Shown here: in pieces, positions 9,893-62,182 of the stretch
Layout of the letters: the number at the start of each line of letters is the position of its first letter
Numbering within the stretch: position 1 is the first letter of the stretch
Source: Massalongia carnosa
Taxonomy: Eukaryota
Length of the DNA stretch: 64,000 bases
Direction of reading: 5' to 3'
Assembly (NCBI GenBank): GCA_965645245.1
Contig: OZ287072.1
Coordinates: 992,001-1,056,000, forward strand
Position numbers and translations under genes: made by a program
Notes under the pieces: model-generated
The model's database searches: none
Seen by the model: only the letters and a program-made list of their open reading frames with translations
What the model was told of the DNA's origin: nothing

Positions 9893-11773
9893 CTACGCAG
9901 GAACCGCAGCGCCATCACCCCTAGGATCGCTACCACCACTATAAACATATTTTCCGTTTTCCCTATGACATCGAATGACTTGACCACAACCAAAGATTCC
10001 GCGCCCGTAGCCTTTGACTATTTCAACGTTATGGCCTAATACTCGTAACTGCTTGACTACCTCCTCACCTATCCCCTCTTCGAGATAAATAGTCCGATCA
10101 AGCACTTTGCCTTGCTCAGGAGTTCCGGCGCCGATGCAAAACCTTGGTGCGTCCAAAGCTGCCTGTGGCGTGTGTCTAAATGCCAGCATGTTGAGAAGCA
10201 CTTGAACATGACCCTGAGGTTGCATGAATCCGCCCATGACGCCATACACCGTATGCAAACTTTGGTCGTTAGAATTTGTAACTATAGCAGGAATGATTGT
10301 ATGATATGGTCTCTTTCTAGGAGCGTACGCGTTTGGATGGCCTTCCTGAAGGTTGAAATTTGCAGCTCGACTCTGCAGAGTGAAGCCGCAACCTTGGGGG
10401 ATTATGCCAGTGCCAAATTTCCCGTAAACGCTGTTAATGAATGAAATTGCATTGCCAAACCTGTCTGTGACAGCAAAATAAACCGTGTCACAATGATTAT
10501 GGGCAGGTGAGCCGTGATCGATAATATCAGAAGCCTTGTTCGGATCAAAAAGGGTTGCTCGTTCAGACAAGTAGGAACGAGAAATCAGTTCCTTACTGGG
10601 GACTCGCTCGACATTCGGATCTGTCACCCACCAACTAGTATCTGCAAAGGCTATGCGAAGGCTCTCAATCACAGCGTGTAGATACTCTGCGCAATTGTGT
10701 TCACCTTCGATGAAGGTCCTTATCCTTTGGGTTCGCTCAAGCTCTTCTAAAATACCTAAAGCCATGAGTGCAACGATCCCTTGCCCATTAGGAGGGTGCT
10801 CCCAAACCTCTAAGCCTTCTGTCTCGTCGGATTTACCAGCTTGGCCATCCTCGGCTCCTGTTGGCGCTTTGCTTATATTTTGGCCATTGAACTTGAGTGA
10901 AATAGCATCTACCTCTTCACTGCCTAGATCAGCATGGTGCTTAAGATCCTCCATGGTCAAATGACCCCCAAGACCCTGCACAACTTGAATCAAGGAAGTT
11001 GCAACTGGGCCCTCATAGAAGCCCTTTTTACCATTCTGAGCAAGAACTCTGAAGGTATTGGCTAGAGTTGGATTCTCAAATAACTCTCCCGGACGCGGTG
11101 CGCGTTTGCCATCTGGGGCTTTATTATCTGATTTCAGCATTTCACCAAAATGAGGACATGCATCACGAATATGCTTCTCGCTGGCTTGCCACTGGAAAGT
11201 GTTATCATTCGTATTTTGCCTCCTTCTTCGCACACTTACAAACCTTGATGCAAGCTCGGAGACAGGGAATCCCTCTTCCCCAAGCTCTATTGCCGGAGTT
11301 AGAATCTGCTTTAAAGAGAGCCTTTTACTACCAAACTTTTCCACAGTATCTATCCAACCGGCAGCAGCACCGGGCGTTGTAACTGAGTGTACACTTGACA
11401 TGGAAATTGTTCCAGGTTGGCCTGGCTTTAATCCTAAATCGCGACGCAATCCTTCCAAACTTGTATTAGCAGGAGACCGTCCAGACCCGTTTAGCGCATG
11501 AACTTTTTTTGTTTTTGCGTTATAGAACAAGCAAAACATGTCACCCCCAATACCTGTTGAGGAGGGTTCAGTCATGTTCAATGCTGCAGCAACTGCGACT
11601 GCAGCATCTGCAGCATTACCCCCATCCCGAAGAATCCTTTGTCCTGCCTGTGCAGCCAACGGTTGTGTACATGCTATTATTCCTTGAGTACTATGTACAA
11701 CACTTCGTCTGCTAGGAAAGGCTATGAAGTCTGGGTCCAGTGAAGGATATATAGCGTTCGCATTGAGTGGCAT
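9893..11773 (-). CDS. Gamma-glutamyltranspeptidase family protein (Ntn-hydrolase), in-frame 48-nt intron at 11192-11239
   Basis: GGNAADAAVAVAAAL, EPSSTGIGGDMF, PPNGQG, the autocleavage Thr in DTVYFAVTD, KRPYHTIIP, GVMGGFMQPQGH and SDPRGDG. Confidence 0.93.
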   Translation of the reverse strand: MPLNANAIYPSLDPDFIAFPSRRSVVHSTQGIIACTQPLAAQAGQRILRDGGNAADAAVAVAAALNMTEPSSTGIGGDMFCLFYNAKTKKVHALNGSGRSPANTSLEGLRRDLGLKPGQPGTISMSSVHSVTTPGAAAGWIDTVEKFGSKRLSLKQILTPAIELGEEGFPVSELASRFVSVRRRRQNTNDNTFQWQASEKHIRDACPHFGEMLKSDNKAPDGKRAPRPGELFENPTLANTFRVLAQNGKKGFYEGPVATSLIQVVQGLGGHLTMEDLKHHADLGSEEVDAISLKFNGQNISKAPTGAEDGQAGKSDETEGLEVWEHPPNGQGIVALMALGILEELERTQRIRTFIEGEHNCAEYLHAVIESLRIAFADTSWWVTDPNVERVPSKELISRSYLSERATLFDPNKASDIIDHGSPAHNHCDTVYFAVTDRFGNAISFINSVYGKFGTGIIPQGCGFTLQSRAANFNLQEGHPNAYAPRKRPYHTIIPAIVTNSNDQSLHTVYGVMGGFMQPQGHVQVLLNMLAFRHTPQAALDAPRFCIGAGTPEQGKVLDRTIYLEEGIGEEVVKQLRVLGHNVEIVKGYGRGIFGCGQVIRCHRENGKYVYSGGSDPRGDGAAVPA

Positions 11774-12157
11774 AGCTGTAGAGGACTTGTGAATAGATAT
11801 TCATGGATTGAAAACATGAACTATTCCATTAACCTGCTGAGCGATCAACGAGTGTACTATGTAAATGTAGTCGTTAGTAACAGAAAATAACACTAAGCCG
11901 GTAGAAATGCCGGGCCACTAGACCATCTAAAGTTAGAGGTCTGATACTTTTTGGTTAAAATGTCAAGTTCATCGGCGGTTTATTTTTCATAGCAAAAGCC
12001 TCGAAGCAGCTAAACGCAATTTTTGTGGCATTGTGCTATGTCTTTATTTTCTAACGAACGAAATGTTTCTTCCATATACGTTATAATAAGAGTGGGCATT
12101 GAATATAATTTCCTATGATTAGGTTGGCTGGATTACAAGGCAAAGTCCCTTCATAGC

Positions 12158-13495
12158 ATGTTACATTTGCGCTTTAAATGTCGCAACTACTCTCTGGACG
12201 CGTGCAGACTGCTTCCGTCGCAGAGGTTTTGGTATCACAGCACTACAGTTTCTCCACTCCACTCTCTCTCCGCGGCATTGCTAGGGAGAGCTCGATCCGT
12301 TTCCGCCGAACATGCGCAGCTTTCGAAGCATCTTGCAAGCGGATATGATATCGCGGTAGCTCGAAAATTAGGGGAGCTCTCCACTACCGCGAAAGCCCTC
12401 GAGAATTGGGAACTAGCTCAAAATGTTGGCCTAGGTTTCCTTTACCCGAGAAAATCACTAATACCCATGTAGTCACTTTCAGAACTCCAGAAGCTTCTCG
12501 TAGACCCGACGACTGATGCAGAACTGCGTTCTTTGGCAGCCGATGAAATTGGAAGTACATCAGATGCTCTACATCAGTTGTCAAACCACCTTCAAGCAAG
12601 CTTGCTTCCAGTTCATCCGTTTGCTGGGCTGCCATGTCTCCTGGAGATTCGGCCAGGGGCCGGAGGATCAGAAGCCGCGCTTTTCGTCGGCGATCTCTTG
12701 CGCATGTACCAAGCTTTTTGCAAACGTCATAGCCTTCGGTGCAATATTCTAAAGCTAGACGACGCACCCTCGGTTGGGGGAGCGTCGGGTAACGAGGTCC
12801 AAGAAGTGGTGCTTGAAATTGACGCTGTAAGCGCCTATGATTTGCTCAGATGTGAAGCTGGAGTTCATAGGGTGCAGAGGGTACCTACCACTGAAAGCAA
12901 AGGTAGAACACATACAAGCGCAGTGTCTGTCATGGTGCTACCAAGTTTTCCGAGCGATGGTTCGGAAGAGCTTGGAGCGGATAGCTTCGAAAATCCTTCA
13001 AGTGATTACTTTGTGGACCCTAAGGAGGTAAGGACGGACGTTATGCGTGCTAAAGGCGCAGGCGGCCAGCATGTCAATACTACTGATTCCGCTGTCCGCC
13101 TTACACATATACCAACCGGTACCGTTGTAGCTATACAAGACTCAAGATCGCAGCCAAAGAATAGACAGAAAGCTTGGCAAATTCTACGGGCTAGAATTGC
13201 CCAAGCACGACGTGAAGCTCGTGAAGAAGAAATGGCGCAACTTCGAGTCAGCGTCATTGGTGTCGCCAGGATGGGTCGTGGAGATAAGGTCCGAACCTAT
13301 AATTGGAGTCAACAAAGAGTCACTGATCACCGGAGTGGTCTAACGCTGAACCATCTTGATAATATACTTGAAGGCGGGGAGAGTCTTGATAAAATAATGG
13401 AAAGTGTTAAAACTTGGAGTAGGGAACGGGATGTTGAATCTCTCATCGCAGACGAAGAGGCTAAGGCTAAAAACCCCAATACAAAGCCGAGATAA
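12158..13495 (+). CDS. MRF1: Mitochondrial peptide chain release factor 1; intron 12425-12472
   Basis: EIRPGAGGSEAALF, GVHRVQRVPTTESKGRTHTS (PxT), GAGGQHVNTTDSAVRLTH (GGQ) and RTYNWSQQRVTDHR. The Arg/Leu/Ser-rich N-terminus resembles a presequence, and the intron joins the two ORFs in frame. Confidence 0.92.
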
Positions 13496-18000: not shown

Positions 18001-18353
18001 TTGGGTAGGCAGGAAGAGAGGTGGGCAGGTGAGTTTATGTATGTAGCTAGGTGAACTAGGTGAACTAGGTGAACTAGGTAGGTGCCTGAGTAGGGCAGAG
18101 GGTCATGTTAGGGCAAGACAAATAAATGCCCGTTGGAGGCAAAAAGAGCTCCTGTCCAGCTGAAGCCGTTTGCTCACATTCAAAAGAGAGTCGATGTCTC
18201 ACTTCTTTATCATTTTTCGTATTTTTCTGCTGGTCAAACATTCGGACTTCATCATTTATATTCAGCGCTGGTACGTTCGGCGTCTTCTCTCGCGTCTTTC
18301 TTCCTACACACGTCCATCCACTAATTACCTCAGCATTTCATCTTCAGCCCCTC

Positions 18354-20455
18354 ATGCGGTCCTTCACTTATCCCTATCGTCTGCTATCAGTCCTGGTGAC
18401 GTTGATTGGAGCTCAAGCTGCTGTGACTTTTGTTTCGAATCTTGTCGTGCTTGAGAGCTTACCGGCGGTTCCGCAAGGATGGCGCCAAGGTGTTTCCGTG
18501 CCTGCGCAGGAACTTCTGAGATTTCGCATCGCACTGAAGCAGGAGAACGCCTTTGCTTTTGAACAACATGTAATTGACATTAGCACCCCCGATCATCCCA
18601 AATATGGTCAGCATATGAAGCGTGACGAACTTAAAGCGATGTTGCGCCCCAGCTCCAACGCCTCAACAGCGGTTTTGCAGTGGCTCTCGAAGGAACATGT
18701 CCAGACTACAGATGTTGAAGATGATGGCGACTGGATTAACTTCTCCGTGGCGGCGGCTAATGCTGAGCGGATGTTGAATACCAAGTTTTATTACTACACC
18801 GGCTCCATGGGCAAAACCATGATAATCCGAACTCTTCGCTATTCCGTCCCTGAGAAACTGCACCAGTACGTTCAAATGATTCAGCCCACCACTCGCTTTG
18901 GTGAGATCCGTTCACAACACTCGACACTTTTTAAGCAATTTGATATTGGTCCTGCCAGGAACGCACAGGCTTCCTATAGCCACAACGCTGGCTTTAATGC
19001 TACGTTCTGTAATTCCACAATCACCCCGGACTGTCTCAAATATCTCTACAATTTCGCAGGGTATGAATCCAAGCCAAATAAAGGTATATCCTTCCCTCGG
19101 GGATGCTGTAATCTCGACAAAGATGGATGTAGTCAAGCTGACACGATCCAGCCAATATCATCGGAGTCGGTGGTTTCTTGAAAGAATACGCACGATATAA
19201 TGATTCCGCTGCGTTCAAGAAGAAATATGCGACATATGCCGAGAATACGACCTTTGAATATGTACTGATAAACGGTGGCCTAAACAAGCAAATCGACCCG
19301 GTCGATGACTCCAGCGAGGGTAACGTGGACGTGCAATACGCGTATCCTCTCAGCTATCCGGCAAGAGCCATATATTACAGCACTGGTGGGCTTGGAGAAA
19401 TAGTGCCTGACAACGATCAACCCGTAGCCGCTCACAATTCAAACGAACCTTATTTGGACTTCTTGCACTACCTTTTAGCTTTACCCGACAACGAGTTACC
19501 TACCACGCTAACTATTTCCTACGGCGAAACCGAGCAGAGTGTTCCTAAGCCTTGTAAGTGAAGAGTTCTTTTCATTGACCATCTGCTAACTCATCGCAGA
19601 CAAAAACCAAACCTGCAGCCTCTTTGCTCAACTTGGTGCGCGCGGTGTTTCTACTCTCTTCTCTAGCGGCGACACTGGTGTGGGGAGTGCATGCCAGACC
19701 AATGATGGGAAGAATGCTACTCGCTTTCTGCCCGAGTTTCCTGCCTCATGCCCATTCGTTACGGCGGTTGGAGCGACTTATCATGTTGAACCTGAGCGAG
19801 CCGTTGCTTTCTCATCTGGTGGATTTTCCGATTTCTTCCCTCGACCGACGTATCAAGACGCTGCGGTAAAGCAGTACCTTGGTATACTCGGGGATAGATG
19901 GACGGGCTTGTACAATCCCGAAGGTCGTGGCATTCCGGATGTTGCGGCTCAGGGCTATAATTTTACAGTTATTGACCAAGGCCGACAACTTAAGGTTGGC
20001 GGTACAAGGTAGGCTGAGCGTTCAAGCAGTCCTCGGAGTTGGATCAAGTACTAATCCTCTTAAGCGCTGCTGTCCCAACCTTTGCAGCAGTCATCTCCCT
20101 CCTTAACGGCGAGCGAATCTCTTCCGGGAAACCTCCTCTCGGCTTCCTTAACCCTTTCATTTACAGCGTCGGCTTTAAAGGGCTCAATGACATCGATGCC
20201 GGTGGATCGAACGGTTGCAACGGTAAAGATCAATACTCCGGCCTCAAAACGCCTATTGTTCGGTATGCGAGCTGGAACGCCACCCAGGGCTGGGATCCAG
20301 TCACCGGGTACGGAACACCTAATTTTCGAAAGCTATTGGCCATTTCCCGGCATTACCACCGCCGACAAGGAGCCGCCAGCCGGCCAAAGCTAGGGTATGC
20401 TCCAATTTCGGAGTATGAGTACTATCCTGCTCCGAAATGGGGTTACGGAGGGTGA
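18354..20455 (+). CDS. Secreted tripeptidyl-peptidase / sedolisin (peptidase S53), 4 exons
   Basis: Signal peptide, pro-domain ([12 protein letters not shown]), [10 protein letters not shown], catalytic EGNVD, oxyanion [25 protein letters not shown] across an intron, and the Ca-site [13 protein letters not shown]. Confidence 0.93.
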
Positions 20456-21280: not shown

Positions 21281-22946
21281 TCACGTCTTCTCAGTCGTAA
21301 AACCCCCCTTCTCCGTCAAACTTCCAATCCTTCCCAGCAGAAACTCTACCTGCCGATACGCCGCGCTAGGCGCATACTGCGGCACCATGTGCCCCGCCAA
21401 ACTCACCTCTACCCATGTAAGGCCGCGTTCAGTATGCGTGGTGCCAAACACCCCAGCCCCGGCCAGGGTCTCGAGGCTGGCATCTTTATGGTAGGGCACG
21501 AAAAACTCATCCGAAGGCTTTTCTTGGAAGCCTTGAAAGCCATGCCAGGTCATATTTTGGATCATGAGGAGGGTGCCGTTGGCGATGAGAATGTAGTCGA
21601 GGGCGCCGTGGGCGATGATGGTGCGGTTCAGGCCTTCGATCACGCTCGGGAGCACGGAGAGACCGCTAGGGGGGGAATCGTCCTCAGTCAGCACGCCACT
21701 GGAGCATTCGGTCCACGGCTGGATGGGGGCGTTGATGGCCCTTTGGACGTCGGTTCGGTTGAAGTAAATTTCCGCGCCTGAGGGGAGGTAATCGAAAGAA
21801 CCTGGGAACCCGAGCACATCCCAGAGGAGCGGGCAGGTAGTGGCGATTTGGTAGATGTCGAAGCAGGGGTTTATAAGCGAGACGGCGTTGTAAATGTCGC
21901 CCCAGATTTCACAGCCTGGGGCTTTGGAGTCCGGAGGCGAGGGGAGGGGCCCTTTTGGCGGGTAAACGAGACCTTGGTTGAGGAAGGAGGTATAGTTGCA
22001 GGCGTCGGCTCGGGCGTGGATGTTGGCCGTGAATGAGGCGTTTAGGGAGAAGAGAGGAGCAAAACTGTCCACATAGGCGACGGCAGGGACTTTGTGGGTT
22101 CTTGGCATTAGTGGCCGGCTTCAAAAATAGGCTCACTTTGTTGACCTACTTTCTTCTTGAACGACGTCCAAGCTTGTGCTTGGATCGTAAATCAGGATTG
22201 ATTCCACATCATAGTACCCTGTATCATTTTTCTTCAACATTGCGTCTGCTATATACGGCACGTAGTACCCTGCATAGCTTTCGCCTGAAATAAACACCTT
22301 TTTGTGATGCAGGTCAAAGGTGTCCACAAAATTCTTGAAGAAGCCAAGAAATTGCGCAGCCACGTCATGTTCGTTCTTTGCGGTGGGCTTCCCTTGCGAA
22401 AAGCCTGTGCCCACAGGCTGCTCGACCCAGACCACGTTGGTCAAGTTTACCCAAGTGTACGGGTTCTTAACAGGCTTAAAAGTACCGTACTGCCATAGGA
22501 ATGGCCCGTTCTCTTGTAATAATCCTTCCAAAGAGCTACAGCCAGGGCCCCCGTTGAGCCAGATTGTAATTTCATCCTGTGCTAGTGGGTTCTGAGACGG
22601 AAAATACCAAAAGTAGAGCTTCCGGGTTTCGTTGAATTGATCCGAGATTGGCAAAAGGCCAGCGTACGATTCGCCGATGTCGAAATCAACATCAGGGATG
22701 GCTGTACCATTCACCACAAACTCTATGAAATCATTAACACAGCGGCTTCGTGGCAGCATTGGACATACTTTGTGTTTTTCTATTAAGATGTCTTGGAGCA
22801 AGCTTCGCTATTGATCCCGTATTTCCTTCTATTCTGGGCTGAATTCTAGATTCGGGCTTTGACAATCTCTTGCCAACATGTTGTGGGCTTCTTGCTGCCA
22901 CAAGGCAGGCTGTAGTAAGCAGGCCGAGGTATGTAAAAGCGCGCAT
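21281..22946 (-). CDS. Secreted serine carboxypeptidase (peptidase S10, CpdS-like), 3 exons
   Basis: Signal peptide [40 protein letters not shown], catalytic GESYAG, HGALDY and AGHMVPQY. Confidence 0.93.
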
Positions 22947-24972: not shown

Positions 24973-25069
24973 TAATCGTCGGCTAGTCTCGCTTACCTCG
25001 GCCGACTCGAGGCGTTCGCCTCTAACGCCTCGAGTCGGCCGAGGTAAGCGAGAGACTAGCCGACGATTA
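24973..25069. repeat. Near-perfect foldback palindrome (44/46-bp arms, 7-nt loop)
   Basis: TAATCGTCGGCTAGTCTC-GCTTACCTCGGCCGACTCGAGGCGTT, loop CGCCTCT, then the reverse complement with a 2-nt insertion. TA at both ends. Confidence 0.9.
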
Positions 25070-26030
25070 CCTTCATTGCAAAGAATACGCGTCAGAACAG
25101 CAACCACATTCTGAATATCCACAAAGCTTGAAGAAGGAGAATTCAGTCCCACAGAGAACGCCTGCAAATGATCTGGCCAGCAGAGACCTCAACGTTATCA
25201 ATGGTCGACGTGAAGAACTGGGAAATATACATATCACTGAGACTCGGGCTGCTGCCAAGCAAGTAAAGAGCAGTGTTGTTTTCAACGATACAGCCCATCG
25301 ATCTACCGAGAGAAGCAGCCTCCGAAGGTGTTCAGTCGGACCCAGTCCTGCTACGCAGTGTTATCGGCGTTCCCTTGAGCCTGTCTTAATCAGACTCCTT
25401 GCTCAACTGCCTTTCAAGTATGGCGTAGCAACCAACCTCGTATCTAGATACGAAGCCCATATTACTGCGGACTGTCATACCGACATATTACAGAGATATA
25501 GGGAATCTGGACACCAATACAACATCGCGAAGGAGCTTCAGCTGTCCCTACCATACATGCGTATATCTATAGAAATCCCCACATTGAGTGTAATTTTTTA
25601 TAGATAGCTTGTTCAAGCTCAACACTGCAATTATATATCAGCCTCCCTTGTAGCTTCACGTCCGATTGCGCCCAGTTGCTGTACTCCTCGCACTGACGAC
25701 CGTGAACCTTTGATCAGTGTTATAGGAGAGCTGATCGCCACCGCTTCTCTCGCGCTTTTAAGGTACTCATCAAGGTTATCATGATTTATTACATGATGTT
25801 ACGGCAGGACGGATCGGAAAGGCTGCGAGAGATGGCGCACGTCAAGTATGCATGAGATATAATAACCTGGACTGAGAAGAAGCCATGCACTGTGACTTGA
25901 ATACGGCTAGATCTACCGTTTACAGCAAGCAGTCTCTTTCGAGAAACGCATGCTATCTATCTCCTTCTCCACGACAACTAAGACTTGCATGAGAACTTTA
26001 ATACATGAGAAGCGCGGCGTGCAGGAAAAA

Positions 26031-27082
26031 TTAGGGAGGAGGATCAAGTCCAACAATATTGCTTGGTCTCCTCATAACCCGCCGTGGGGCATTATGCTTC
26101 TCGCTCCACTCAACAACGCCATCATAATTTCGGCACCGATGCAAAGTGTTGAAATTCGGCCATGGAGTTTCCCTCCTCGAGACCCAGCTGTGGGTGATAA
26201 CGCCAACATCAGCGTCACAGGTTATCTTTTGCCGGAGCATTTCAATACAGTGGTCTAGACAGCATAGCGTATCAGCCTTGTACTATTTTGTAAAAGATCG
26301 TCAAACTAACCGACGTGAATGCGGAGCAACTCGGGCGGATCAGTGAAGGTGAGAGAGCGATTTTGATAGTATTCTGGGTACGTATACTCGCGGATTAAAT
26401 TCTGGTATTAATTTCACGTGTCAGTATTGAATGGTATCGATGTTTTCAACTCTGAAATCTGGTTTAAGACTTACCAGACAGTGCATTTGATGGTAAACCT
26501 CAAGACCGGCGAAGATTCCCCCGCCTTGGCTCTCGTCCAACCTAACGACGTTCTCTGTCAAGGCATGGCCGAGCTTCATGAATTCTTCTTCTGATATGCT
26601 GAAGGCTTCGACTACGAACGCATCTTAGCTCGTACGCGCCGTTAGAGAGAAATATACGTACTTGATTCTTTTCTGACCAGCGTCTCCCATGCAGCGTCGA
26701 GAGACGGATTAGGTGTCCCTCTGAACGGAGAAGGCCAGTCGAGTGTACCGTTGAAAAAGTATGTCTGGTAGGGAAGGATGGCGGCTAGCGCAGGGGCTAT
26801 ATTGCTTTTAGCATACTGGCTTCGTCGAGCATTGATCTACTGACACCAGGTGTTTTCTTGATTGATACAGTCAAGCGAGGATGTAGAGCTGGATTTAAAG
26901 AAAATGATTGTGAAGATGCTAGATATAATTGCAAGATAGGACAAGTGCGTTATCAACAACAGGTAGGTTGGGTTCTTTTGTGTTTGTATCTTGGTTTCAT
27001 AGGACTCTTCCAAGGACAACAAAGGCTGTGCCGATGATTTGCTGGCATCTGCGACATAATCTTGATAATGACCCATCTTCAT
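26031..27082 (-). CDS. UstYa-like / DUF3328 oxidative macrocyclase, 274 aa; exons 27082-26845, 26796-26662, 26611-26475, 26401-26311, 26254-26031
   Basis: Manual splicing gives an uninterrupted frame: N-terminal TM helix (YLLLITHLSYLAIISSIFTIIFF), SPFRGTPNPSLDAAWE, LEVYHQMHCLNLIRE (HxxHC 1), IHVDHCIEMLRQKITCDADVG (HxxHC 2) and PNFNTLHRCRNYDGVVEW. All introns are GT-AG. Confidence 0.95.
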
Positions 27083-27398
27083 ACGAAAACCAGGTGTATG
27101 AGACTGTTGCTTTGATTGTTTTAAATGGAGAGAGGGAAAATTTTCGAGTTGAGAAATGACTTAATGCTTACCTGCATCTAGTGCATTATTTGTATTGCGC
27201 TCTCCAGTACCCCGCACAAAGACGTCAGGGCGAAAGCTCACAATAATCATCTCACCTAACGCATGGAGACATGCATTGCTTACAGGTGTTGTTGGCTTGC
27301 GGCACATCTTTTCCATGGCAGAGAAGGTCAGACTTGCAATTTCGGGTGAATGGCAAATCTTAGCGCCATATCAGAAGACAATCTGAGAGATTTAGGAA

Positions 27399-27588
27399 TA
27401 GAGTGCGATCGACAATGCGTCGACTAGCTCATGCTGTAAGCTCCTAAACCACACCAAGTAGAGCTTGATAACCCGAGTCTAAACAAATTGACTAGAGTGC
27501 GATTAAGAATGCGTCGACTAGCTCATGCTGTAAGCTCCTAAACCACACCATATAGAGCTTGATGACCCGAGTCTAAAAAATTGACTAG
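27399..27588. repeat. Tandem duplication, 2 x about 94 bp, in the divergent intergenic region
   Basis: TAGAGTGCGAT...AATGCGTCGACTAGCTCATGCTGTAAGCTCCTAAACCACACCA...CCCGAGTCTAAA...TTGAC begins at 27399 and again at 27493 with a few substitutions. Confidence 0.9.
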
Positions 27589-28806
27589 GGCTGCAGAGCA
27601 ATCCCATCATCCGCGTCTTACTGCACAAGTGGCTGGTATTGTACCCTGTGACGCAAGCCTCTTACAATAATTTCAAGCAACAGACGGATTGGTTGAGTAG
27701 AGGCACCTGTGTTTCTCAACATGCAAATCCATACTGGAATAGAGATTCGATAAAAGGGTACGGCGGCTTCCAGTCTCTCAGAAAACTAGCTTCATGTATG
27801 GGTCACAATCAGTAGAGGCTAATTCAGGGGAATATTGACCTTTACCGTCGGCGGAGGACGTAGTAAAATGCTCTTGTATCTTGCCGCTTGCTATGAAAAG
27901 AAGGACTAACACAGACTGAGTTGGAGTTCATCAGTGACCAAATGGGAAACGAACAGGAAAGCGGTCAGACACAGAATCGTTGGAGCAGTGACGCTTACTG
28001 TCAGCAACCCTTAAAGAGACTTTCCCGCGCGGCAGTTTTCCCGCACTAATACATATTCGGCTCATCCCAAGTCTTGATCTACAACACCCTTTCCTCATTT
28101 TGCCTCTGGAAGCTCTCGAATATTGTGACATGCGGCATAAAGAGTGTAGAAGCTTTCGTAGCAGTCAGTGCCTATGGAACGGTTAAAAGGCTACAGAGTA
28201 ATCGCCTCACCGCTCTTTATAGCGGCCGGCCATGTATCAGCAGGCTCTTCTTCTGATGCAGAGCAGACGCATTATCCCTAGCCTTCAACGCCTCAGGTGA
28301 TATCCCAATGGTTGGCATCTTCCTTGGACTCACGATACGGCTTTAGTATCTTTTTGACTTCGGACCCACGCGAGCCGTTATCGTGGATTACTTTGATTAG
28401 GAAACAAAGACACCTCTCCGTGAATGATACTCGACAGCAAGGGTGTCGCAGGCGGCCCGATCATCCCATGCATCTCATTATCTTATAGACTCGTTGTTCA
28501 CCGCTACTGCTGTTTAGCTGCCGCGTAATGGTAGACGTGCGTCACCTTATTATAGTGCAGGGTAGGTAAACAGCGTGTCAGTGGCCAAGGTCGCTTGCAG
28601 CTGAGCAGAAATTATGTCGCGCTGACTTGTGGGTGGCAAAAATTCATCTAAAAGTCCTTAAAGCCCGGGTCATTCCTTTTAAGAAATTATATTACTCTTC
28701 AGATCACCATTCAAGTCCCAAACTGCAACAACTTTCCTCTTAGCACAATAGAACAGATATCTCGATCCTTCTTTATCTTCCTAAACACCTCAGCTGTGCC
28801 TTAATC

Positions 28807-29324
28807 ATGCACTGTCAACCAATTCTTGCTCTTGTACTCGGGCTCGCTACCCTCGGCATCGCAGCACCCATCCTTGAGCCAAGTCAGCGGCCCAGGTTCC
28901 TGTAGCGAGTATCACTGACAGATTTTCAGCCGATGCTGTCAAGCGTGAGGCCGAGAACGATCTGCAGTACAAGTACGGCAATTACGCCGGCGACAAGCGT
29001 GAGAACGAGCTACAGTACAAGTACGGCAATTACGCCGGCGACAAGCGTGAGAACGAGCTACAGTACAAGTACGGCAATTACGCCGGCGACAAGCGTGAGA
29101 ACGAGCTACAGTACAAGTACGGCAATTACGCCGGCGACAAGCGTGAGAACGAGCTACAGTACAAGTACGGCAATTACGCCGGCGACAAGCGTGAGAACGA
29201 GCTACAGTACAAGTATGGCAATTACGCCGGCGACAAGCGTGAGAACGAGCTACAGTACAAGTACGGCAAATACGCTGGCGATGAGGAGGATGTGAAAGAC
29301 AAGGATTTCAGTGCTTCCGTCTGA
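28807..29324 (+). CDS. Kex2-processed repeat protein / RiPP precursor peptide, 156 aa; exons 28807-28882 and 28930-29324
   Basis: MHCQPILALVLGLATLGIAAPILEPTDAVKR-EAENDLQYKYGNYAGDKR-(ENELQYKYGNYAGDKR)x5-ENELQYKYGKYAGDEEDVKDKDFSASV*. Signal peptide, a 47-nt GT...CTGAC...CAG intron restoring the frame, and KR sites between repeats. Confidence 0.93.
28953..29282 (+). repeat. Coding tandem repeat, 48-nt unit x 7 (last unit lacks KR)
   Basis: Unit GAGAACGAGCTACAGTACAAGTACGGCAATTACGCCGGCGACAAGCGT. Units start at 28953, 29001, 29049, 29097, 29145, 29193 and 29241. Confidence 0.97.
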
Positions 29325-29729
29325 TTGCTCTCGTCAATATGTGAGTACATCCCTACAGCCTCTATCGTATCAAGACTGATCGATTATCCAGAGAGATTGT
29401 GGGTATTTTCCACCTGGCAGCCAATTTTCTTTGTGGTCAAGGAGCCATATTAGTCAATGGTGTTTCGGAAGATTCGGTCGAAGGGATGAGGATTGACGGT
29501 TTTAGGACTAGTGTACGCAAAGATTGGGCGTGTTGCAGCGTTGCGTCAGTGTTTCCAGTGTCGCTCTTGTATATAACGACACTAGAGCATATCAATCATA
29601 TTTCTATCTATGAACAAGTTCGTCCTGTTACTCATAATGAGCTCATACACGATTAATCCAGGCACGTTTCATACCTATGTGGAGGAAATCAGCGCTGCTT
29701 GCTACAATTCTGACCCACATCTTATTCTT

Positions 29730-29995
29730 CGTGGGTGCAGCCAGCACTCTGCAAACATATTGGAATGTGTTTTGCTTAGTGCGAAAGAAAGAGACAGGCT
29801 GTCAGGAGATCGATCCGCTCGTCAAGAGCCAAATGCAAGGAGTACGCGAGCGCCTTCTCACATATGTCCCTCGCTGACGGGGAGCAGGTGAGACAGCAAC
29901 TGACCATCAAATATTGGTTACGGACGGAGAAGAAGAAGCCGATCATGCGTGCCGAGGATGAGCTCGAGCTCCTTAAGACCTTGGTGAGAAGCTGA
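29730..29995 (+). pseudogene. Fragment of a DUF3435-like (tyrosine recombinase / Starship captain-type) gene
   Basis: After removing a 46-nt intron (29842-29887) it reads AASTLQTYWNVFCLVRKKETGCQEIDPLVKSQMQG-VRQQLTIKYWLRTEKKKPIMRAEDELELLKTL and then breaks off. This resembles the N-terminal region of fungal DUF3435 proteins as I recall them. Confidence 0.55.
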
Positions 29996-30021
29996 CCAGG
30001 AGCAAGACCATAGATACGGCC

Positions 30022-30829
30022 TTGACAAACGTTATCGATTATGACGGTCTTCGGGCGCGCCAGGCTATGCTGCCAAGCAATGACATATGGACCTTCAACA
30101 TTTTTCGCCTCTCGGCCACCTCCCAGCCCTGCGCCTCCCATAATAGCACCCTCATAATCGCCTTTGTCCACAACGAAGACCACTACCGCAACACGCACCC
30201 ACAACAAGCCTGTTCCTACAACGCCGTCGGCGTCCGCTACAGCACCGATCTCGGCTGCTCTTGGACCCATTCCCTTCCGATCCTGCCCCTCGACATCCAG
30301 CGCGACGCCGCGAACTGCTACGCCGAAGGCAGCATTGGTGACATGGCCGCGGCCTGGAACCCGCTCAAGAAGCAATGGGTCATTCTCGCGCAAGAAGCGG
30401 GTGGGCCCTTCGCTATGAGCGTCTCTAGCGACCCGCTTGCCTCTCCCTCCTCCTAGACGCGCATCGATCCCGTCAGCGGTAAGACCGGCCCCGGGTTCAA
30501 GGGCGCGGCGCTCCCGCACGGCGATTTAAGCGCTGTATCTGGGAGCAACCCCGAGTACCATCCGCGACGAGAAGAATGCCTGCTGGCACATCGTATACGC
30601 GCGCTGGGGCGGCGGGTTAGCCTACAGCCGGAGCGTGGATCTGCAGCGGTGGGAGAAGCCGGTGATGATGTATCAGGGCGAGGGGGGCGAGGGCCACGTA
30701 AGATATCGGACGTTGGTCGGCGATGGGGGGGGTACGTTGACGACGGATGTCACGGCCATGTTGTATTTCGGTAGCGATATAAAGATTGGTGGCGGGAGGG
30801 CGTTGTGGGGCGTGAAGATTACATTTTAA
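30022..30829 (+). pseudogene. Disrupted beta-propeller / Asp-box (BNR) glycosidase-like gene
   Basis: GC-rich coding-like sequence with AFVHNEDHY, Asp-box YSTDLGCSW and SVDLQRWEKP. In-frame TAG at 30454-30456, an apparent frameshift near 30555, and no proper N-terminus. Confidence 0.6.
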
Positions 30830-32912: not shown

Positions 32913-34694
32913 CAGTCGAACCCCGCTATAGGGAAGTTCCGTATAACGAAAACCTCGGCATAACGAATTTATTTCTCGGATTTTTTGTAGTTATATGGTA
33001 AAAACCTCGTCTCAGGCTTTTTGCCCTGATGATCAGTTGAGATGATTTACGTCTTGACCAGATGAGGTGAAATGAATGGCATTGATCTATAGATGATTTT
33101 CTAGCTAGGTATGCCGCCATGGGATAGATCAAGAGATGTCTCCGAAGGAAGAAAGAATGTGGGGGATGAAGAATTTTTACCTGTGCCGCGGTGGCAATGT
33201 CATGTGACGGGCATGTGACGGGCCCGTTGACCAATGTTGGTTAATGCCAGACATTTGACACCTCGTTATAACGAAAAACCCTCCATAACGATATAACGAA
33301 AATTATTTTCAAACTTTTGGTGACGTTAGTTATAGCGAGGTGATAAAGCTGTCATATATTTGCTACGATTCTGCTGTAAATATGTCTCGAGAATGGCCTG
33401 CCTTCATGTCTTTGTCAATTTCCCCCCCCCGAAAAAAAACCCGTCATGGAATCACAAATATTCAGCGAAAAGCTCTTCGGGACTGGTACAATGATGATTC
33501 AAAGGATAAAGTGACTCAGAACGACTGTCGCATGTGGTGGAAAAAGGGAGTATAAGTATGTGCCTGGGAGTGGATTTATCAACGAGATTCTCAGTTCCAA
33601 ATATGCTTATCTGAATGATAAATAGGAGGCGAGCTCAATCAAATGAGAGATTATTCTCAAATGACCTGTGTTAAAAAAATGCTGTGTTCGAATGAAAGCA
33701 ACGATATGAACAGGTCAGTCTCACTGTTAATGCTGAAGTACTACGAATCAAGGTCATCGAATTGTGAAACAAACTGCCTTAGTATGAAGGCATTCCCACT
33801 CCGAAATGGAGCAACGACTGGCTAGATCGATTTAAAAGACGACGAGAACTCAAACAACGCATTTATCATGGCGAGGCTGGTTCAGCTGATCAAAGTGAAA
33901 ATGTACAGCAGATAATGACTGATCTTCGTAAATTAGTATCTCAATATGCTGTCAAAGACGTTTACATATAACATGAATGAAACAGGGCTTTATTGAAAAA
34001 TGGCACCCGATCGATCTCTTGATACTGAGAGGCACGCCGATCAGAAGCAGGATAAGATGTGTTTTTCACAGTAAGCTGCTCATACAGAACTGCTGAGGGC
34101 GATCAGGAGTCATTGATTGAGGTTCAGCACTCTTCAATCAATCAAGAACCTCGGAATGAATCGAGTTCGAGACTGTTTTGGAAAAGATTACACAAAACAT
34201 ACGTCAGATGCAGGTCATGGATAGAATAGAAGAGCCGATGAACATTCATCAATTTATAAACCCGCTCGAGGAGGCTATAGGGGACACGAATGAAGACATT
34301 ATAAATGATGTCGTTTCACGATATGCGGAGCAGGAAAGGCTCGCTGAAACGAATGAAGAGATGAATGTTATACCTGTTATAACGGTGAGTCAAGCATAGG
34401 AGGCTTGTAGGATTCTGAGACTGCATGAAGAACAGCAGTTGAAGGCGATATAGACATGCTTCATCAATTACGAAGACATGAACGGGGGCTGTTTGAAAGA
34501 CGGCAAAAGAGTCAAAAACAAGCCACTCTAAGCACTTGGGTAGTTGCTGGGGACAAAGGGGGAGAATTGGGGGTTTTTAGGGGGGCAAAGTAGTAAATTT
34601 ACCATGATTTCCCTCTCCCCCGATATAACGAAAAACCCGCTATAACGAAATTATTTTGGTAAAACGCCACCATCGTTGTGGCTGGGTTGGACTG
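32913..34694 (+). mobile_element. Degenerate pogo/Tigger-like (Tc1/mariner) DNA transposon, about 1.78 kb, TA TSD
   Basis: Ends TA|CAGTCGAACCCCGCTATA ... TTGTGGCTGGGTTGGACTG|TA, with subterminal TATAACGAA repeats. Broken transposase remnants of CENP-B-like HTH/DDE type (ITNIQRKALR, NDWLDRFKRRR, HGEAGSAD, NMNETGLY) carry stops, frameshifts and an internal deletion. Confidence 0.85.
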
Positions 34695-59240: not shown

Positions 59241-62182
59241 TCATGTCTCAAGAAAAGTGCCCGCTTGTATAGTTACTGGTTCTGTATGACCAAAATAAAA
59301 ATGCCAAAGTCGGCTCCCTTGCTTGAGCAATTCCACCGCAGCTTGCCGAACGTCTGAGCTGTCTGTATGTGTTTTTGATGTGTACACCTCAGTATAACCA
59401 ACTAAACAGATAACTCGTCTCTTCGGGTCTACAAGGCAGCGCCAGCTCCCAGGGTTTTTTACCATTCCTGTACACATATGGCTGATAGGAACGCCCTCCG
59501 AATGTTCCGTCAAGGCCACCCTCTTCAGACCTCTAGTATATTTTGTGGGCATACCTCCCGCGTATGTCCTTGCATGAAGAGCCTGCGTTGCAATGGGTTA
59601 CGGATATCAAAGGTTGCCAAGAAAACCACTTTTCTAGAAAGGTCAAAGCTTTCATATTCCATTGGGGTTTATTGTTGCAGTTCGTTAACGATACCAACAC
59701 GGTGGCTAACTTGAGGCCTTGCACCTCCTCCACAGTCTGAACTTGACGGTTGCCGTCAACGCCGGTTATACCAAGCTCCATGTTTGATCCGCAGGCAGCA
59801 ACGATTGTGACTATCGTACTGTTATAAATGGTACGCATTTGCGTAAGCTGGTGACTTCTCGATTCGAGATCCTCCTGAAAAATGTAAAGAGAAACCAACC
59901 CTCCGATATCGTTCTCTCAATCACGCTCAAGAAAACAGGCAAGGATGACTATTCGGCCCCGAACGCCTATCGACCCATAGCACTCCTAAACACGCTTGGA
60001 AAAGTAATGGAATCCATCATGTCAAAAAAAACCCATCTAGCGGAAACCCACCGACTCCTGCCCGACACCCAGATGGGCGCCAGACGAGGAAGATCAACCG
60101 AATCTGCACTAGAATTGTTGACTGAACAAATTTATACAGTGTGGGGCCAAGGCACAGACAAAGTAGCCACATTATTGAGCATGGACGTAGCAGGAGCCTA
60201 TGACACAGTGACACATCGAAGACTGATTCACAATCTTCGCAAAAGGAAAATCCCAAAATGGATCACTGACTGGGTGAACAGTTTTCTAAATGAAAGAAGC
60301 ACTACCCTGGCGATTCACAGCCGAGTCACGGGCATATTCGATGTAAAAACCGGAATCCCACAAGGCTCCCCCATTTCTCCTATTCTTTATCTGTTCTACA
60401 ATGCAGACCTACTAGACATATGTGAAAGACCAGGCAGCAACACGAGTGCTCTAGGCTTCGTAGATGACATCAATGTGCTAGCATACGGAAAAAGCACCGA
60501 AGAAAATTGCAAGACGCTAGAGGTAATTCACAAAAAATGTGAAAAATGGGCAAGTCGACATGGTTCAGTCTTCGCTCCGAAGAAATACGAATTGATACAT
60601 CTGTCAAGAAATCCGAAGAAATTCAACATGTTCACTGTTATTCAAATAGGAAATAACATCATAAAACCAAAGACAGACATCAGAATTCTAGGACTTCAAA
60701 TCGATTCAAAATTGAAATGGGGTGCTCACACAAGGAAAATCCAGGAAAAAATGACAAAACAATCCAGGGCATTGACAAAAATATCCACCTCCACATGGGG
60801 CGCCACTCTTCTAAAGGCACGCCAGGTTTACACCGCCGTAGTCCGGCCGGCCATGACGTACGGCTCTACCATTTGGCACATGCCAAAAGAAATTCAAAAA
60901 TCAAACGTCATCTCAAACAAACCGACTGTCATACAAAACAAATGTCTAAGAAACATAGCCGGAGCCTTCAAAGCAACGCCCATAGCTGTACTAGAAGCAG
61001 AGACATTTATAGCCTCAATTGACATTCATTTAGATCAACTACAGGCCCAGACCAGACAACGCCTGTGTCGAAATGGTCAAAAGAGTTTCATCACAAATGC
61101 ATGCAACAAAATAGCCAATAAACTTCGAGGTCGGGCAGGACGCAAGAGGGCCCCAGTCATCACTCCAGGAACGCTGAAATACGCCTGGGCCAAGAGAATC
61201 ATATCGGAGGCACATAACCCTCCAACACCGACACCAAATCCACCATGGGGCGAATCCCCCCCGAATCTCGCCCGAGAAATAGGGGAGGCACGCGCCGCTC
61301 ATAACAAAATAACTGCTCAAATAAAAAAACTACACACATTTGCATGGCAGGCCTCGTGGAGATCATATCAGGAACGCACACCCGTTCCCACCCCGGCACA
61401 ATCAGGTTCACTCTCCAAAAAACGCATCAAATTGCACGAAACTCTAGCCAAAGCGGAGAGTGCGCTAGCCATTCAGATACGCTCAGAAAAGATAGGCCTA
61501 GCCGCCTTCCTACATAGACACCGAGTCCCAGACGTCTCGTCCCCGAACTGCTCATGTGGCTGGCACAAACAGACTGCAAAACATGTGATCATGTTTTGCA
61601 AACTCAACGACAACAGAAAAACTCTGCTAAATACGATAGGCACAAACAACTATCGATTAATCACTGAATCATCTAAAGCAATGAAATTAGTCACAAAGTG
61701 GCTAATGAAGACAGGTTTGTTGTCACAATTTTCGCTGACAGCACAGCATCTATACTGCTAACAGTAGGCATGCTTTGTTTCATTTTTCATACTTGTCTTA
61801 GGTCAAAGGTTTTTTCATGGAGCATACGGCTGGGACCCGGAGGGTCCTCGGCTGGACACAGGATTGCATGGTTTTTCTTCCTCAAGGTTTTCCATGTACT
61901 ATAAAACTAGATAGACTCGCCCGCATGGGCCGGCCTTCGGCCGGTACCACATCGGAATAAGAATCATCATCATCATCATCATCATCGTTCTCTCATGGAT
62001 TGAATAAGTTTTATCGCATGCTTGATGGTATTTGGCAATTTTCGCGGTAAGCGGGTCTGCAATTCGTGATCTTTGGATTGTGCAATCTTGTCTTTCGTTG
62101 CTTGGAAGCTTTCCAGGGTCAATTTGAACCCCCTGTAACTTAGCACCACGTATCGATAGCCTTGCCGAAGCTCTGATGACAT
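59241..62182 (-). pseudogene. HET-domain (heterokaryon incompatibility-like) pseudogene split by a LINE insertion
   Basis: Right of the LINE: YVVLSY...LPNTIKHAIKLIQSMRERY. Left of it: SLYIFQEDLESRSHQLTQMRTIYNSTIVTIVAACGSNMELGITGV. These are consecutive HET motifs, with additional frameshifts. Outer limits are approximate. Confidence 0.75.
59920..61983 (+). mobile_element. 5'-truncated Tad-like non-LTR retrotransposon (LINE), 2064 bp; RT-coding frame open to 61761
   Basis: RT motifs YRPIALLNTLGKVME, LDVAGA-type MDVAGAYD, GIPQGSPISPILYLFY and GFVDD. C-terminal CxC...H...C knuckle, (CAT)n tail, and TSD ATCGTTCTCTCA at 59908-59919 and 61984-61995. Confidence 0.95.

Follow-up and report, generated by a model that had tools for sequence, protein, structure and literature searches.

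What does a small pair of divergently oriented genes in Massalongia carnosa make? The pair lies at 26031..29324 of a stretch of 64,000 nucleotides of contig OZ287072.1 (positions 992,001 to 1,056,000 of the forward strand; hereafter, the window), and it consists of a gene for a UstYa/DUF3328 oxidase and a gene for a repeat-containing precursor protein. We give a probability of about 0.7 to the reading that these two genes are a minimal, asperipin-like module of the dikaritin type, i.e. a two-gene system for a peptide that is made on the ribosome and then modified (a RiPP) in a lichen-type (Lecanoromycete-like) ascomycete, with the oxidase as the enzyme and the precursor as its substrate. The case is built on the anatomy of both genes, their orthology to genes of a second lineage, the conserved pairing in that lineage, and purifying selection on the core peptide. 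An earlier note on this DNA had proposed a dikaritin system here, and the analysis supports it: a predicted secreted precursor with repeats delimited by Lys-Arg (KR) adjoins a UstYa/DUF3328 protein with two HxxHC motifs, and both genes are present and intact between exactly the ends that the note gave. The 64-kb window holds one DUF3328 gene and one KR-repeat open reading frame (ORF).

The oxidase gene occupies 26031..27082 of the minus strand and encodes 274 aa in five exons (27082–26845, 26796–26662, 26611–26475, 26401–26311 and, stop included, 26254–26031), running from a start codon at 27082 to a TAA stop at 26033–26031. Its four introns, of 48, 50, 73 and 56 nt, are all of the GT-AG type, and the exon layout agrees with that of the annotated orthologues P0002 and P0004 and with that of the orthologue on metagenome contig L001, described below; a 38-nt version of intron 2 was dropped for the 50-nt one after the annotated 274-aa orthologues had been aligned. 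In this five-exon model, the intact gene and the two HxxHC motifs claimed by the earlier note are both recovered. HQMHC (residues 165–169) ends exon 3 (26475..26611), and HVDHC (residues 199–203), which is split by intron 4 and formed only on splicing, is completed by exon 5 (26031..26254); 29 residues lie between the two motifs, and both are kept in the proteins P0002 to P0006 and in L001. The cysteines of the protein are residues 72, 169, 203, 213 and 241, with Cys213 and Cys241 encoded by exon 5. The profile check that the note had proposed, against PF11807 (UstYa), was made with four stop-to-stop ORF pieces as Pfam queries, and three of the four matched at consecutive profile positions: 166–220 (exon 5, E 3.5e-20, the best), 93–140 (exon 3, E 9.2e-8) and 51–93 (E 1.8e-3). 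Two of these three pieces each pass the 25-bit gathering score alone; the exon-1 piece has no Pfam match.

What exon 1 does encode is a single transmembrane helix, placed by hydropathy at residues ~39–62 (approximately 26897..26968 of the minus strand, as converted from residue numbers), where a Kyte-Doolittle plot with a 19-residue window has its one peak, 2.03 at residue 42. For the function of such an architecture we look to CctR, the cyclochlorotine hydroxylase. CctR has one transmembrane helix (residues 38–59), faces the Golgi, endosome and vacuole lumen, forms a disulfide-linked dimer, holds two coppers in each monomer, at HxxHC(x)nHxxHC, and requires O2 and electrons (PMC12435403), and the asperipin cyclase AprY behaves like it (PMC12435403; PMC12186524). 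An N-terminal disordered region, a single helix, HxxHC(x)nHxxHC and C-terminal cysteines are found in both CctR and the window protein, and by this analogy the window oxidase would be a single-pass protein with a luminal catalytic domain. A search of the PDB for a DUF3328 structure returned none, the best E of 0.1 belonging to an unrelated protein.

The precursor gene lies on the plus strand at 28807..29324 and encodes 156 aa in two exons, from a start codon at 28807 to a TGA stop at 29322–29324. Exon 1 (28807..28882; 25 codons and 1 base) encodes a signal-peptide-like N-terminus that is hydrophobic (mean Kyte-Doolittle value 2.75 over residues 6–16, with small residues after, on hydropathy only). 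It is followed by a predicted 47-nt, phase 1 intron (28883..28929; GTCAGC...CTGAC...CAG, with CTGAC as branch site), the sole GT-AG intron that leaves the precursor frame open. Exon 2 (28930..29324) begins with a short pro-region that closes with KR; the seven repeats come next, and an acidic tail leads to the stop codon. Tandem Repeats Finder and a unit listing place the array of 48-nt units encoding ENELQYKYGNYAGDKR at 28953..29281 of the plus strand (period 48 nt, 6.9 copies, 97% matches, score 623), and copies 2–5 are identical at the DNA level. At the protein level, the units are 16 aa long: the first starts with EAEND, five identical units ENELQYKYGNYAGDKR follow, and the seventh is of the YGKYAGD type. 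KR followed by Glu-Ala, as in the first unit, resembles the spacers of alpha-factor. Tyrosine makes up 21 of the 125 residues downstream of the first KR site (17%). The seven KR sites stand one ahead of repeat 1 and one behind each of repeats 1–6, and the seventh repeat (YGKYAGD...) continues into the acidic tail without KR; the earlier note was right in counting seven Tyr-rich repeats, but not in having every repeat delimited by KR, since the seventh is not closed by one. It was also right that the precursor is displayed in the wrong frame, as a list of ORFs with start codons shows the array only as a 120-aa frame at 28933–29295. Pfam finds neither MF_alpha, MF_alpha_N nor any other family in the precursor at E up to 1, bar one non-significant match at E 0.52.

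The two start codons diverge across 1724 bp (27083..28806), matching the claimed head-to-head layout over about 1.7 kb, and this intergenic region is presumed to be a shared promoter. It has no alignable similarity to the corresponding region of L001. Within it, at 27399–27588, lies a tandem duplication of 94 nt x 2 (92% matches), which could be a duplicated regulatory element; one sequencing run, X4, has a 9-nt deletion there, at 27427.

Is the repeat array real, and does its copy number hold? The stretch is present in five public runs from three studies, one of them (X4) labelled a lichen metagenome, and the four runs compared all gave DNA contigs without joints. In run X1, possibly the sample from which the window derives, the depth of the repeat unitig is 5.5–5.8x that of the flank, as against 5.49 expected for the seven-unit array of the window; the seven-copy array is thus supported by read depth. 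No short-read contig bridges 28994–29240. Run X4, which is ~0.6% diverged, has a repeat unitig depth of 3.6–3.9x flank, suggesting a strain with ~5 units versus 7, i.e. about two fewer. Compared with the window, X4 shows 4 differences in the oxidase gene, 3 of them exonic and all synonymous and 1 intronic, zero differences in the covered parts of the precursor coding sequence, and 11 differences plus 3 indels in the intergenic region.

The pairing was also tested in another lineage. Scanning metagenome contigs with P0002 gave 10 matching stretches, two of which, L001 (19.6 kb) and L002 (15.8 kb), code for a relative; as these two are 99.5% identical to each other, we treat them as one lineage. 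Each carries a five-exon DUF3328 orthologue with 74% DNA identity to the window gene and, head to head with it and ~1.7 kb apart, an orthologue of the precursor, so the DUF3328 synteny that the earlier note had proposed looking for is indeed found. The L001 precursor begins with an N-terminus of 25 residues that is 72% identical to window exon 1, and in L001 (8163–8209) and L002 (7925–7971) a phase 1 intron is predicted at the same codon, again of 47 nt and here with a GC-AG donor, GCAAGT. The protein then continues into four 18-aa units of type EVVNDLQYKYGKYAADKR with three KR sites. Every window ORF of 50 aa or more was compared with L001, and the 16 matches lay without exception inside 25911–29321, i.e. 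in the two genes and the frames overlapping them. The surroundings are unrelated: housekeeping genes (for Mad3/BUB1, DNA polymerase phi, a rhodanese protein and GINS Sld5) flank the pair in L001, and S10 carboxypeptidase, S53 sedolisin and protein kinase genes and transposon remnants flank it in the window. The pair, as the sole shared content of the two stretches, is thus retained as a unit.

Within the precursor, the core LQYKYGxYA, in which x is N, K or R, is invariant in the 7 + 4 units of the two lineages, and of its eight fixed codons, 5 differ synonymously between the lineages and 0 non-synonymously, which indicates purifying selection on the core at the peptide level. Around it, the spacer is ENE in the window lineage and EVVND in that of L001, the unit has 16 versus 18 aa, the copies number 7 versus 4, and the C-terminal tails differ. 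A fixed core amid varying surroundings is what one would expect if selection acts on the peptide that is set free, rather than on the repeat as DNA or on the protein as a whole.

Which fungi carry the oxidase? Exon 5 as a protein query retrieved 6 proteins at E 1e-5, of which the five named ones bear the labels of metagenome-assembled genomes (MAGs) of lichen fungi (Teloschistes, 2; Heterodermia; Caloplaca; Xanthoria) and the sixth is an ORF from the European Nucleotide Archive. A full-length query with P0002 gave 36 proteins at 1e-10; the best eight, all at 49% identity or higher, have labels of the same lichen-fungus kinds plus Piccolia and Sarcosagium, and below these top eight, identities are at most 48% and the names include Penicillium, Suillus, Aspergillus and Daldinia. 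Over its full length, the spliced window oxidase is 71% identical to P0002 (274 aa) and 70% to P0004. Teloschistes flavicans (Teloschistales) and Heterodermia speciosa (Caliciales) are both Lecanoromycetes, of different orders, and a Lecanoromycete that forms or inhabits lichens is accordingly the most likely source of the window. Kuettlingeria is a further label among the oxidase orthologues (P0002–P0006, P0080–P0082 and P0095). P0002 and P0080 share the label Teloschistes flavicans but have only 56% identity, and there may be an oxidase paralogue in Teloschistes, or two differing MAGs.

To place the pair among known systems, we need to know what else surrounds it. A neighbourhood scan took in 32 ORFs and then, between 13 and 46 kb, 108 of the ORFs that reach 65 aa; these number 162, and the other 54 overlap genes already scanned. 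Among these window ORFs there is no polyketide synthase (PKS)- or nonribosomal peptide synthetase (NRPS)-sized ORF, tyrosinase, methyltransferase or cytochrome P450, and among the 67 ORFs of L001 there is no tyrosinase, methyltransferase or extra DUF3328 gene. CctR differs in this respect: it hydroxylates an NRPS product, and no NRPS lies near the window oxidase. The asperipin-2a cluster of Aspergillus flavus is among the nearest known systems. It has four genes (aprA, aprY, aprT and aprR) with a single UstYa homologue, and its product has the core FYYTGY, made bicyclic by ethers that link Tyr side chains to beta-carbons (PMC6514808; PMC12186524). Like that cluster, the window pair sets a single UstYa homologue beside a KR-repeat precursor, lacks a tyrosinase and a methyltransferase, and has as its core a Tyr-rich hexapeptide with aromatics at positions 1, 3 and 6 (FYYTGY versus YKYGNY). 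It differs in a core sequence that is unrelated save for this spacing, in having no adjoining transporter or reductase, and in a Lecanoromycete host rather than Aspergillus.

The ustiloxin and phomopsin systems (UstA/UstYa/UstYb/UstQ and PhomA/PhomYa-e/PhomQ) also combine a signal peptide (a putative one in the window precursor), a KR-delimited, Tyr-containing repeated core and UstYa proteins with two HxxHC motifs, but they depend on a tyrosinase, on several paralogues of UstYa, on a methyltransferase and on additional tailoring genes, none of which is among the scanned ORFs of the window or L001, and their cores (YAIG, YVIP...) are unrelated to that of the window. The five-gene definition of dikaritins by Ding et al., as quoted in PMC12048977 (tyrosinase, methyltransferase, several DUF3328), describes neither the window nor L001; asperipin-2a is also without these genes, yet it is counted as a dikaritin (PMC6514808).

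More broadly, the precursor has the features of repeat proteins that Kex2 processes (KEPs), including the yeast alpha-factor precursor: a polyprotein, predicted to be secreted, whose repeats are separated by KR with an acidic spacer after it. Pairing with DUF3328 is of a known kind, since 1758 of 7878 KEPs have a DUF3328 gene nearby; DUF3328 gene counts peak at the position adjoining KEP genes, and Tyr is present in 65.6% of the repeats of DUF3328-linked KEPs (PMC7329392). Pheromone-type KEPs differ, as they show DUF3328 linkage in only 3 exceptions (PMC7329392), whereas the window type is linked in both lineages; together with the lack of a match to MF_alpha or MF_alpha_N, this places the precursor outside the alpha-pheromone class.

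Lichen fungi have been surveyed once for RiPP clusters. Pasinato and Singh 2025 describe DUF3328 genes as widespread in them and report no repeated conserved regions in Clans R1 and R2 (PMC12048977). Their clusters, which include singleton 'dikaritin homologs', resemble the window in having DUF3328 genes with two HXXHC motifs in Lecanoromycetes and, in Clan R2, just one ustY homologue, with the usual tailoring genes missing; they differ in that the window precursor is repeated, adjacent and conserved, and in that their clans are from Parmeliaceae, whereas the relatives of the window are labelled Teloschistes and Heterodermia. The supplements of PMC12048977 list Teloschistes and Heterodermia genomes, and the core motif is absent from them. 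When six lichen names were searched in Umemura's Table S2, only Umbilicaria was present, with 7 KEPs, none flagged as DUF3328-near.

How might such a two-gene module work? We propose that the 156-aa precursor would enter the endoplasmic reticulum by way of its signal peptide. The neighbouring oxidase would be a single-pass membrane protein with a luminal catalytic domain, and its HQMHC(x29)HVDHC would form a binuclear copper site. Using O2, the oxidase would act on the tyrosine-containing core LQYKYGxYA in each of the seven repeats, and the likeliest outcome would be one or two macrocycles closed by ethers from Tyr-O to C-beta, as in asperipin-2a. In that compound, the rings join residues 1–3 and 3–6. 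Kex2 in the Golgi would then cleave behind each Lys-Arg, general exopeptidases would strip off KR together with the variable acidic spacer, and the fungus would secrete one small cross-linked peptide in several copies. For the specific prediction of an asperipin-like, ether-bridged product we would put the odds at even or a shade lower.

Could the facts be explained otherwise? The precursor might be an ordinary KEP that yields linear, unmodified signalling, pheromone-like or antimicrobial peptides, with the DUF3328 enzyme acting elsewhere and the promoter region merely shared. In its favour, 78% of catalogued KEPs have no DUF3328 gene nearby and many give linear peptides (PMC7329392), and non-RiPP substrates are known for DUF3328 enzymes (PMC12048977). 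We nevertheless consider it unlikely: the pair is the only content shared with L001, whose neighbourhood differs, no other candidate substrate pathway is found among the ORFs scanned in the 64 kb, the core is Tyr-rich like those of DUF3328-linked KEPs, and the Pfam results give the precursor no pheromone family. Alternatively, oxidase and precursor could be enzyme and substrate with a change other than cyclization, such as beta-hydroxylation, desaturation or halogenation, leading to a modified linear peptide. Members of the family do such chemistry, for CctR hydroxylates, ApnU halogenates and the UstYa homologues of the phomopsin pathway install dehydroamino acids. We regard this as improbable to the same degree, given that asperipin-2a, the one characterized case of a single UstYa protein with a Tyr-rich KEP, is one of macrocyclization (PMC6514808) and that the aromatic spacing of 1, 3, 6 is the same in the asperipin-2a and window cores.

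A third possibility is that the precursor is never cut and acts, once secreted, as a structural or matrix protein rich in Tyr, whose molecules the oxidase cross-links to one another in the hyphal wall or in the extracellular matrix of the thallus. Lichen hyphae sit in abundant extracellular matrix, the Tyr content past the first KR is high, and Kex2 cleavage of the precursor is itself a prediction here. Against this stand the KR at every unit boundary in both lineages, next to a spacer that is free to vary and a core that is fixed, and the absence of any structural-protein family among the Pfam results for the precursor. Because KR marks the unit boundaries and the spacer varies while the core does not, the pattern is that of a polyprotein from which peptides are released, and we consider an uncut structural protein very improbable.

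We therefore return to the dikaritin-type module as the preferred reading, and ask what speaks against it. Splicing, expression, the enzyme–substrate relation, the cross-link chemistry, trimming and the product are all things that we infer. The predicted 5' splice site of the precursor is non-consensus (GTCAGC; a GC donor in L001), with conservation alone in its favour. The comparison of the pair at the DNA level covers two lineages, the window and L001/L002, and in L001 the N-terminus of the first repeat should not be releasable by Kex2, since KP, not KR, precedes it. A transporter or reductase like aprT/aprR beside the pair is found neither among the window ORFs scanned nor in L001, and the general exopeptidases that would remove the spacer are proposed only. 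The chemistry of DUF3328 enzymes extends to hydroxylation, halogenation, desaturation and transacylation, and NRPS and PKS pathways make use of them too (PMC12048977; PMC12435403). Finally, a word-indexed search of 5.8 billion proteins returned 0 homologues of the precursor at E up to 0.01 (5708 candidates of 81–259 aa); because the annotated proteins of the lichen fungi with an oxidase orthologue gave none, the precursor would be unannotated, diverged or absent there.

How new, then, is the system? A phmmer search of 1.84 billion representatives gave 73 matches at E up to 1e-3, with 16–42% identity; the 12 of the 73 that were examined all have periodic repeats but no relation to the precursor, and two of the 12 are KR-repeat proteins whose cores differ; the remaining 61 are mostly long. 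The ESM Atlas gave no usable match to the precursor. The core motifs are absent from the literature searched. The earlier note had proposed both a core unlike the four that it listed and a new system. The first claim held, as none of the protein libraries or papers searched contained the core. The second held in part: the core is new, but a KEP paired with DUF3328 is already a common, catalogued kind. The new elements are the core, the host group of lichen fungi, and the minimal two-gene form amid housekeeping genes; knowledge of the dikaritin class itself is left unchanged.

We know of no RiPP that has been characterized from a lichen-forming fungus. The precursor becomes evident once a 47-nt intron is removed, and it may be the kind of repeated precursor that the lichen RiPP survey lacked. 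A recipe for more of them suggests itself: look for unannotated, spliced KR-repeat ORFs within at most 2 kb of DUF3328 genes. For heterologous expression, the pair is a concrete two-gene target, which matters since lichen fungi are very hard to culture, and the predicted product, in which the core is new but its aromatic spacing is that of asperipin-2a, would therefore test how a single copper-dependent UstYa enzyme chooses its cross-link partners. A broader proposal, to which we would give somewhat less than even odds, is that this is the first recognizable ribosomal cyclic-peptide pathway of lichen-forming fungi: a two-gene cassette kept amid differing surroundings, making an asperipin-like bicyclic peptide on Tyr-Lys-Tyr-Gly-x-Tyr, with the 'missing' precursors of Lecanoromycetes being small, unannotated, intron-containing genes beside DUF3328 genes.

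Among the neighbours of the pair, three genes were considered as cluster members and rejected, with no counterpart in L001. Beyond the oxidase gene, at a distance of 3–8 kb, lie the genes of an S53 sedolisin (18126–20455, plus strand; Pro-kumamolisin activation domain at E 1.6e-45) and of an S10 serine carboxypeptidase (21284–22807, minus strand; E 3.8e-53 and 2.3e-20); a tripeptidyl peptidase acting with a carboxypeptidase could in principle remove KR and the three residues of the ENE spacer. The third, a gamma-glutamyl transpeptidase (9893–11800, minus strand; PF01019, E 2.5e-128), is probably unrelated, because it is 14 kb off with a mitochondrial release-factor gene (12473–13495) in between; the ustiloxin cluster also contains an enzyme of this kind. 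Directly 3' of the precursor, on the plus strand at 29586–30771, are open frames with no Pfam match and no L001 counterpart, one of which has, by eye from its translation, a sialidase/BNR Asp-box-like stretch. Two plus-strand features are transposon remnants: a pogo/Tc5-like HTH_ABP1_N fragment (33289–33552, E 1.5e-6) and a reverse-transcriptase ORF (59788–61761; RVT_1, E 6.7e-30). On the other side of the pair, 25024–25073 is a dispersed repeat of ~50 nt with a depth of 5176 versus 149 for its neighbours in run X1 (~35x), at which many contigs end or branch in all four runs; a multi-copy mobile element probably ends here.

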